A stretch of DNA of 4,057 nucleotides, taken from NCBI RefSeq assembly GCF_003334305.1, contig NZ_QOWS01000051.1; one strand, written 5' to 3'. Of the stretch, positions 2,614 to 4,057 are shown in pieces. The first letter of the stretch is position 1; each line of letters starts with the position of its first letter. Under the pieces are notes generated by a model. That model saw only the letters and a list, made by a program, of their open reading frames with translations. It did no database searches and had not been told where the DNA came from. Origin of the DNA: Escherichia coli. GTDB lineage: Bacteria; Pseudomonadota; Gammaproteobacteria; Enterobacterales; Enterobacteriaceae. The translations under genes were made by a program, and so were the position numbers.

Positions 2614-3006
2614 TCATTGATGCAATTCGTAGATTTGAAGAAGTTCAACTGCCACATTTTTATTTTTACTATCGCAATTTTTATACCATACCCATGCTTC
2701 CGTATTTTTTACTTTTTTTAAATCATCCATAATAAAATCCCCACCAAAAACAGTAAAATACAATGTTTCCTCATTAAAAATAAAACTCACTGCCCCCCCC
2801 TCTTTTATTTTAATTTCCGCTTCATTTGTGTTCAAATCAACTTTTTTAATTACTCCATGTAAGTTGGGTTTTGATAGTTTTTCTACGCCACCATCAGGAG
2901 CGGGTAATATACATCGTTTAAGAACTTTAGCATTTGCACATCCAATAACCAAAATTAGAATGCACACTCCCATGTTAATCGCATTAACGTGTCTTAAAAC
3001 GTTCAT
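2614..3006 (-). CDS. Putative immunity protein for the Rhs C-terminal toxin; predicted lipoprotein (130 aa)
   Basis: ATG at 3004-3006 lies 23 bp inside the end of the Rhs gene (stop 2984-2986), the usual toxin-immunity coupling; GGAGAGAG upstream. N-terminus [28 protein letters not shown] has a positive n-region, a hydrophobic core and a lipobox-like V-I-G-C with Cys23 (also AxA-like ANA). AT-rich relative to the Rhs core. No homology recognised; the immunity role is inferred from position. Confidence 0.6.
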
Positions 3007-4057
3007 ATCTAATTCTCTCTCCAGGATGCGAATACATCCAACTTGTCACTTTCTTACACAACTCATCTACATCTTCATTCTGTGCACGGGTACATCCCAT
3101 AGTTGGTTTCCAGCCTTGTCGAGGAGCATAAGGATCGCGCAACGATGATCCCCCACCATGTAGCCATCTTGCTCTAGTATCTGTAGTATAGATCTTCGTT
3201 GTGCCATATGCTGCCGATATTCCTGATTCATTTGTCTCACAACCAACGACTTCACCTGTATATGGATCACCAGCACCACGTTGAGAACGACGATCAATTC
3301 TATTGCTACTATCAAAAGTCATTGAATCACCTGTTTCAGGATCATAATAAATAGTCACTCCTCCAGTCATATCAGTAAGAACAAGAGGAGTTTCAGCACC
3401 TGCCCGGTCTGGAGCGGGAGGCCCATATACACTTATAACTCGTTCTAACCCCAGTGGATCAGTGTAACGTATTGGTGCCAGTGGATACGTGTATAGATTT
3501 ATTCCCCCCTTCAACCCTATCGGATCCTGGGTGATATACCGCCCCTGCAACGGATCGTAGTACCGGTGACGGTTGTAATACAGTCCCGACTCCTCATCAT
3601 ACTGCTGCCCCGGCAGCCGGTACGGCTGGTACAGGTGATGCGGGTTCTCCTCATTAAGCTGGTTCCCCCACTCGTCATACTCCCCGCACCACGCCGTTTC
3701 CCCTTCCGGGCTGATGAGCGCCTGCGGCAGTCCCCGGTGGTCACAGTGGTAAAGATGCAGCCTCCGCTCCGGGATGTATTCCGCCTCCATCTGGCTTTCC
3801 ATCTGCTCCACCGTCAGCCCGCACTGCGCAAGCCATGCCTCACTCTCCGCACTCACCGCTCCCGCACGCAGTTCCCGCTCCAGCCTCCCCAGCATCACCG
3901 CCAGCTCCGCCGGAAGCGTCACCCCCGTGTCCTCCTGCAACACCTCCGCCAGGCTCCGGTGCCGCGCCTTCGCCTGTTCGCCATTCTCTGTTTCGATTCT
4001 CAGGAGCGGCGTGAAGCTTCCCGGCTGGTATACCGTCTGGATTCTTGTCTGTTGGGT
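2984..4057 (-). CDS. Rhs family protein, C-terminal 357 codons: end of conserved Rhs core, DPLGL motif, and ~153-aa variable C-terminal toxin domain; partial, gene continues past window position 4057
   Basis: The frame is open from the window edge ([39 protein letters not shown]...). The ORF-track start at 3941-3943 is a GTG codon inside the longer frame, not the real start. It contains the canonical Rhs core end [33 protein letters not shown]...YTDPLGL, followed by an unrelated tail ending ...[37 protein letters not shown]. Confidence 0.9.
2987..3445 (-). other. Rhs C-terminal toxin domain (153 aa); candidate YkuD-like L,D-transpeptidase fold with His (3158-3160) and Cys (3092-3094) in an HGG...[15 protein letters not shown] motif
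   Basis: Sequence after DPLGL: [153 protein letters not shown]. The HG...(S/T)xGC(I/V)R..N.D(I/V)..L pattern of L,D-transpeptidases is recalled from memory and was not searched. Confidence 0.45.
3446..3460 (-). other. DPLGL motif (Rhs DPxGL autoproteolytic site) marking the boundary between the conserved core and the C-terminal toxin domain
   Basis: Reverse complement of 3446-3460 is GAT CCA CTG GGG TTA (D P L G L), immediately after the conserved PxxxxDPxGL context ([13 protein letters not shown]). Confidence 0.8.

Follow-up and report, generated by a model that had tools for sequence, protein, structure and literature searches.

A type VI secretion-linked Rhs protein of Escherichia coli with a predicted YkuD-fold toxin tip and a lipoprotein immunity candidate

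Known L,D-peptidase toxins and the locus examined here

Toxins that resemble L,D-transpeptidases have been described both by prediction and from experiment. The "Tox-LD-peptidase" toxin domain, 1ZAT-like and with conserved H, S/T, and C residues, was put forward as a prediction only (Zhang, de Souza, Anantharaman, Iyer and Aravind, 2012; PMC3482391). It was associated with RHS repeats, with secretion by the type VI system (T6SS) as one of its routes and with gamma-proteobacteria as one of its lineages, and was predicted to damage peptidoglycan; such toxins were told from housekeeping enzymes by their RHS architecture and linked immunity genes (PMC3482391). Tlde1 (then Tae5, DUF2778) was characterised in Salmonella Typhimurium, and Rhs fusions of it were noted, e.g. 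in Shigella sonnei (Sibinelli-Sousa et al., 2020; bioRxiv 10.1101/2020.02.18.954545). Tlde1a is a T6SS YkuD-like effector that is toxic in the periplasm and has L,D-carboxypeptidase and exchange activity (bioRxiv 10.1101/2020.02.18.954545; PMC9638812; PDB 7UMA). Its structure contains conserved stabilising disulfides (PMC9638812; PDB 7UMA), and the spacing between its H121 and C131 is stated to be shorter than in YkuD (bioRxiv 10.1101/2020.02.18.954545; PMC9638812). Here we compare with these systems a window of Escherichia coli DNA (the whole stretch analysed, 4,057 nucleotides of contig NZ_QOWS01000051.1, assembly GCF_003334305.1), in which an rhs gene ends in a tail of this kind and is followed by a gene for a predicted lipoprotein.

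With a probability of about 0.72, the E. coli rhs gene whose 3′ end lies in the window is linked to the T6SS, and its tip is a YkuD-fold cysteine peptidase or transpeptidase attacking periplasmic peptidoglycan, with the lipoprotein serving as immunity protein. The toxin class is already known and partly annotated, and this member of it is uncharacterised.

The Rhs core and its C-terminal tail

On the minus strand, one reading frame starts beyond the right edge of the window, continues without interruption as far as the stop codon at 2984-2986, and contains the following parts.

3446..4057, minus strand: C-terminal part of the Rhs core protein, running off the right edge of the window and including the Rhs-associated core domain
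3446-3475, minus strand: autoproteolysis motif PxxxxDPxGL at the end of the Rhs core, read from the translation
2987..3445, minus strand: toxin domain of 153 residues with a predicted YkuD (L,D-transpeptidase/carboxypeptidase) fold, the C-terminal tail after DPLGL

The PxxxxDPxGL motif separates Rhs cores from toxic tips, and the features that mark an Rhs protein are all present here, namely the RHS core, the Rhs-associated core domain, and this motif ahead of a variable tip. When the 357-residue translation was compared with NCBIfam, it matched NF041261 RHS_core (E value 1.8e-114) and TIGR03696 (1.1e-23), both matches ending at residue 204. The window fragment reaches 383.9 bits against the last 209 model positions of NF041261, and the full-length protein with the YkuD tip reaches 2508 bits, the cut-off being 2000. 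This full-length protein is 1410 residues long in complete genomes (WP_126123763.1), with the tail at residues 1258-1410; the open reading frame (ORF) of 319 residues with a GTG start in the window is a mechanical call, and the protein in complete genomes is longer. The Rhs core has a G+C content of 0.59-0.67, the tip one of 0.42-0.47, and the gene after it one of about 0.30; a step of this kind is classically the mark of Rhs elements whose tip has been exchanged.

YkuD resemblance of the tail

YkuD (PF03734) is the only Pfam family found for the 153-residue tail at E ≤ 10, with an E value of 3.4e-5 and 24.9 bits over model positions 53-139 of 146. The relatives of the tail behave in the same way; 10 of the 13 homologues at 44-54% identity match YkuD on their own at E ≤ 1e-3, as do 20 of 56 long family members at E ≤ 0.1. 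The NCBI pipeline already names detached fragments of the tip "L,D-transpeptidase family protein," and NCBIfam has no match for the tail, for the immunity protein, or for an orphan ORF described below.

An AlphaFold2 model of the tail, built with 17 sequences, has a predicted local distance difference test (pLDDT) score of 81 and a predicted template modelling (pTM) score of 0.77. It consists of a low-confidence linker (residues 1-16) and a structured core of about 130 residues (approximately residues 20-150), and in this predicted structure the tail has the YkuD beta-sandwich catalytic fold. When the model was compared with the PDB by Foldseek, the best eight matches were all of YkuD fold; Csd6, Stackebrandtia YkuD, Bd1075, Ldtfm, an A. 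baumannii Ldt, and Tlde1a are among the top ones. In an hhalign alignment of the tail with E. coli LdtB, Cys118 of the tail falls on the catalytic cysteine of the SHGC motif. Direct sequence search of the PDB with the tail gave chance matches only (E about 1), so that it is Pfam, hhalign, and the comparison of folds that tie the tail to solved structures. From these comparisons, the YkuD resemblance of the tail is real.

Predicted active site and its conservation

The tail carries the motif H96...T115-M-G-C118-T-R120, with 21 residues between H96 and C118. The codons in question are as follows.

3158..3160, minus strand: predicted catalytic histidine, His96 of the tail (His262 of the 319-residue ORF, His1353 of the 1410-residue protein), in the motif R-W-L-H-G-G-G, which aligns to IHG of LdtB
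3092..3094, minus strand: predicted catalytic cysteine, Cys118 of the tail (Cys284 of the 319-residue ORF, Cys1375 of the full protein)
3239-3241 and 3056-3058, minus strand: non-catalytic cysteines Cys69 and Cys130 of the tail, which co-vary across the family

Conservation was counted in 144 family representatives. The two predicted catalytic residues are near-invariant, His96 being kept in 142 and Cys118 in 143, and the positions around them are also well kept: Gly97-99 (140-143), Gln110 (144), Thr115 (139), Gly117 (143), Arg120 (141), Asn123 (143), and Asp125 (136). As far as residue conservation can tell, this pattern speaks for an enzyme that is active, its site somewhat altered, rather than for a decayed domain. 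Cys69 and Cys130 have a different distribution; both are found in 21 representatives, neither in 100, and a single one of them in 1. This pairing suggests a disulfide that would be present only in the subclade holding the E. coli tip, and joint occurrence of this kind suits a disulfide in an exported protein.

These results bear on a first-pass annotation of the same DNA, which had been made from the letters alone. Its 153-residue tail after DPLGL at 2987-3445 was confirmed exactly, together with the motif sequence it gave, and its residue numbers are correct for the 319-residue ORF. The L,D-transpeptidase (YkuD) signature that it recognised has been borne out by the Pfam matches of the tail and its homologues, the fold comparison that it suggested led to YkuD-fold structures, and its His262/Cys284 pair turned out to be the near-invariant one.

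The predicted immunity gene and other putatively exported partners

The gene that follows the tip overlaps it.

2614..3006, minus strand: predicted immunity gene for a lipoprotein of 130 residues, its first 23 bases shared with the end of the rhs gene

Its product begins with a hydrophobic N-terminus resembling a signal peptide, followed by the lipobox V-I-G-C (Cys23, codon 2938-2940) with Ala at +2, and is thus predicted to be a lipoprotein facing the periplasm; this agrees with the lipoprotein immunity partner of the first-pass annotation. In three genomes the gene is annotated as coding for hypothetical protein WP_001101835.1 directly after the Rhs gene, and elsewhere the NCBI pipeline names the product "DUF4367 domain-containing protein"; its Pfam match to DUF4367 is weak (E value 4.6e-4). 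A word-indexed homologue search with the 130-residue protein returned only near-identical E. coli sequences and frameshifted fragments, and a single-sequence AlphaFold2 model of its mature part was unusable (pLDDT 34).

For six distant homologues of the toxin, drawn from metagenomes and genomes, the next gene downstream was also inspected. All six products start with a hydrophobic segment like that of a signal peptide. Five of them belong to one family of about 190 residues (L003 3597-4190; L004 8857-9444; L005 4853-5437; L007 8360-8959; L008 7712-8275), the sixth is different, and no Pfam match is on record for them. Many members of the 190-residue family share a C-x4-C-L motif past the signal peptide. 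This family, predicted to be exported, is a candidate uncharacterised immunity family, and, judged from their N-termini, three unrelated immunity candidates all look exported.

Family spread and carriers of the toxin domain

When 1.84 billion cluster representatives were searched with a profile, 340 clusters matched at E ≤ 1e-3. The domain is strictly C-terminal, ending at most 49 residues from the C-terminus in all 124 near-complete matches. Its carriers among the 56 long members are mainly RHS/YD proteins, 31 of them with RHS repeats at E ≤ 0.1; the other carriers include LysM (4), SLT lytic transglycosylase (5), a VgrG N-terminus (1), and haemagglutinin repeats (1). LysM and SLT domains bind or cut peptidoglycan, and their fusions with the toxin domain point to the cell wall.

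Individual architectures were also noted. At one locus (L006 29-5105), the toxin domain sits on a LysM-containing protein of 757 residues (P0116, 2116-4389), directly after vgrG and an ORF of 231 residues. Another protein (P0079, 672 residues) has a VgrG-like N-terminus (Phage_GPD), then an Rhs end, and then the toxin domain. The architectures of P0116 and P0079 indicate that the toxin domain has been recruited to several T6SS carriers. Four small proteins of about 190-197 residues (P0028, P0016, P0022, and P0025) consist of a signal-peptide-like segment, the end of an Rhs core (RYVxSDPIGLxGGxNTY...DPxGLD), and the toxin domain; they may be Sec-exported stand-alone versions or orphan tips. The gene of P0028 (L003 3001-3591) comes after a Transglut_core2 gene.

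Genomic context and prevalence

In three complete E. coli genomes the gene order is tssC-tssB / hcp-vgrG-rhs-immunity, and yafV adjoins in two of them. It is from the gene order hcp-vgrG-rhs only that we infer secretion of this Rhs protein by the T6SS on VgrG. The N-terminal 400 residues of the Rhs protein match DUF6531 and RHS repeats in Pfam, and a PAAR domain was not detected there. Tip and immunity DNA are found at ≥99% identity in 1028 of 5426 complete E. coli genomes, always on the chromosome and usually in single copy, and at least 80% of the tip-plus-immunity query is held by 912 complete E. coli genomes. Fragments also occur in many Shigella sonnei records.

Proposed mode of action and alternative readings

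Taken together, the lipoprotein gene, the exported downstream proteins of distant homologues, the paired cysteines, and the fusions to LysM and SLT are best read as signs of a toxin that acts in the periplasm on peptidoglycan, a reading in which we infer both the site and the substrate. The first-pass annotation had likewise proposed a peptidoglycan-targeting enzyme acting in the periplasm, and the exported downstream proteins, the LysM- and SLT-fused relatives, and the T6SS context hcp-vgrG-rhs support it.

The toxin would work in the following way. The Rhs shell would enclose the tip and carry it on the VgrG spike, and autoproteolysis at DPLGL would free it. After T6SS firing, the tip would be released in the periplasm of the target and fold there, perhaps forming a disulfide between Cys69 and Cys130. 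With His96 activating it, Cys118 would then attack the L,D peptide bond after meso-diaminopimelate in the stem peptides of peptidoglycan. The most likely net reaction would be tetrapeptide trimming or exchange of the last D-amino acid, as in Tlde1, by which cross-linking would be starved or corrupted and the wall weakened. The lipoprotein, facing the periplasm, would presumably bind the active site and so protect the producer and its kin.

Several points weigh against this reading. First, the literature naming both Rhs and YkuD yielded no experiment on this protein, and the E. coli T6SS papers examined make no mention of this tip. Second, the sequence similarity has its limits; the Pfam YkuD score of the tail is modest (24.9 bits), and no solved L,D-transpeptidase was found among PDB sequences at E ≤ 10 with a family profile from a trimmed alignment (A2), which was used for this search because the first profile was dominated by the Rhs core end of the homologues. 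Third, the second histidine of (S/T)HGC is Met116 here and is variable in the family (L 33, Y 23, M 20, H 17 of 144), so that the chemistry may differ. Fourth, covariation of Cys69 and Cys130 could come from shared ancestry of one subclade. Fifth, the signal peptides were called by a simple script for hydropathy and lipobox, and five of the six distant downstream proteins come from one family. Finally, YkuD-fold enzymes carry out cross-linking, carboxypeptidase reactions, attachment of Lpp, and removal of Lpp, and the exact bond attacked is thus not fixed by the fold.

This last point leads to the strongest of the alternatives, in which fold and compartment are the same and the reaction is another one: the tip would be an L,D-endopeptidase or amidase cutting 3-3 cross-links, would detach Braun's lipoprotein as DpaA/LdtF does, or would make aberrant cross-links. 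We regard this as possible, at a clear distance from an even chance. The only characterised T6SS effector of YkuD fold, Tlde1a, is a carboxypeptidase/exchange enzyme, and the domain is small, with about 130 structured residues and no obvious acceptor-site decoration; otherwise nothing specific speaks against it. A bolder proposal we hold just as tentatively. The family (approximately 340 clusters at 50% identity; RW-HGGG...QGW-PT-GCTR-QN-D, no second histidine) would be a distinct clade of YkuD-fold toxins with a chemistry unlike that of Tlde1, e.g. cutting of 3-3 or Lpp-peptidoglycan links or formation of illegitimate links. If this were true, Rhs shells would routinely deliver periplasm-acting, disulfide-bonded enzymes. 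The tip is present in Shigella sonnei and in roughly one complete E. coli genome out of five.

Action in the cytoplasm is very unlikely. On such an account the tip would act on soluble wall precursors, recycling intermediates, or an unrelated protein substrate, and immunity to it would not be the task of the downstream lipoprotein. It is true that cytoplasmic nucleases, deaminases, or ADP-ribosyltransferases make up the majority of characterised Rhs tips, and the immunity assignment here rests on gene position only. However, the lipoprotein gene overlaps the rhs stop codon and accompanies the tip in the 912 genomes, export is likewise predicted for the downstream proteins of the six distant homologues, LysM and SLT domains occur as fusion partners of the toxin domain, and the paired cysteines suit an oxidising compartment. 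The idea of a degenerate, catalytically dead domain or of a chance resemblance can draw on the modest Pfam score, the Met in place of the SHGC histidine, and the family profile without a sequence-level match to solved structures, but against the conserved site and the predicted fold it is the least probable of all.

Other genes of the window

Beyond the immunity gene, the window contains the following.

1299-2435, minus strand: ISAs1-family (H-repeat) transposase gene, immediately following the immunity gene, an arrangement known from classical Rhs elements
817-1296, minus strand: ORF of 159 residues with a glycine-rich hydrophobic start and no family match
357-551, minus strand: ORF of 64 residues after the 159-residue ORF, annotated elsewhere as DUF3969 family protein
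1-276, minus strand: start of a second rhs gene (MSGKPAARQGDMTRKGLDIVQGSAGVLIGAPTGVACSVCP...), running off the left edge of the window

The transposase gene has an in-frame TGA after codon 59 (...THPDVLK*YGDFENG...) and is therefore probably a pseudogene; in strain S51, RefSeq marks an "internal stop" at this very position, whereas strain 2013C-3033 has an intact copy. About 320 bases of the 159-residue ORF are found again, with 94% identity, within full-length genes for "RHS element core protein" of other genomes, so this ORF looks like a displaced (orphan) Rhs tip, for which the 64-residue ORF is possibly the immunity gene. In two other genomes the second rhs gene is annotated as frameshifted and is followed by ydcD.

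Significance

Because the class was predicted in 2012, current understanding is unchanged by this locus. If the proposed activity is confirmed, the tip would be among the most widespread T6SS effectors of E. coli and Shigella with a cell-wall target, and it would show clearly that an Rhs shell can deliver a toxin of the periplasm instead of the cytoplasm. It would also widen the Tlde1 concept to take in a second branch of the L,D-transpeptidase superfamily, one recruited independently, and add a new family pair for effector-immunity cataloguing.

The first-pass annotation had set such a tip apart from the cytoplasmic ones more usual on Rhs cores. Its placing of the tip in the periplasm is supported, and such a tip is less unusual than it had supposed, as L,D-peptidase toxins borne on RHS proteins have been on record since 2012 and relatives of Tlde1 fused to Rhs since 2020.

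Comparison with known systems

The E. coli tip resembles Tox-LD-peptidase (PMC3482391) in its position C-terminal to an RHS core, its H and C motif, its T6SS link, and its adjacent predicted immunity gene. The immunity proteins are different. Those reported for Tox-LD-peptidase are Imm16 (DUF2750) or Imm57, the latter mostly alpha-helical (PMC3482391), whereas the candidate for this tip is the 130-residue lipoprotein with its weak DUF4367 match, and distant homologues of the tip adjoin the exported family of about 190 residues with no Pfam match on record.

With Tlde1, the tip shares membership of the YkuD superfamily, a His and a Cys, a T6SS locus, and an adjoining immunity protein predicted to be exported. 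The two differ in the spacing of the catalytic residues, with 21 residues between His and Cys in the tip and 9 in Tlde1a. DUF2778 (PF10908) is not among the Pfam matches of the tail (E ≤ 10), of its 13 close homologues, or of the 56 long members, and the family profile did not find Tlde1a (7UMA) among PDB sequences at E ≤ 10. The likeness to Tlde1 drawn in the first-pass annotation is one of predicted function only, and the tip is not a member of the DUF2778/Tlde1 family. As the tip is abundant in S. sonnei records, the S. sonnei Rhs protein WP_052983304.1, mentioned in that work as a fusion of Rhs with DUF2778, may carry this very tip.

In structure, the tip is closer to the housekeeping L,D-transpeptidases, and its similarity to Tlde1a is weaker. 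Its His-Cys loop is six residues longer than that of LdtB. Unlike E. coli LdtB/YbiS, E. faecium Ldtfm, H. pylori Csd6, C. jejuni Pgp2, and E. coli DpaA, it has no signal peptide, LysM, or peptidoglycan-binding N-terminal domain of its own. Finally, in contrast to the housekeeping L,D-transpeptidases and carboxypeptidases, it lacks the second His of SHGC and is borne on a toxin carrier with an immunity gene.
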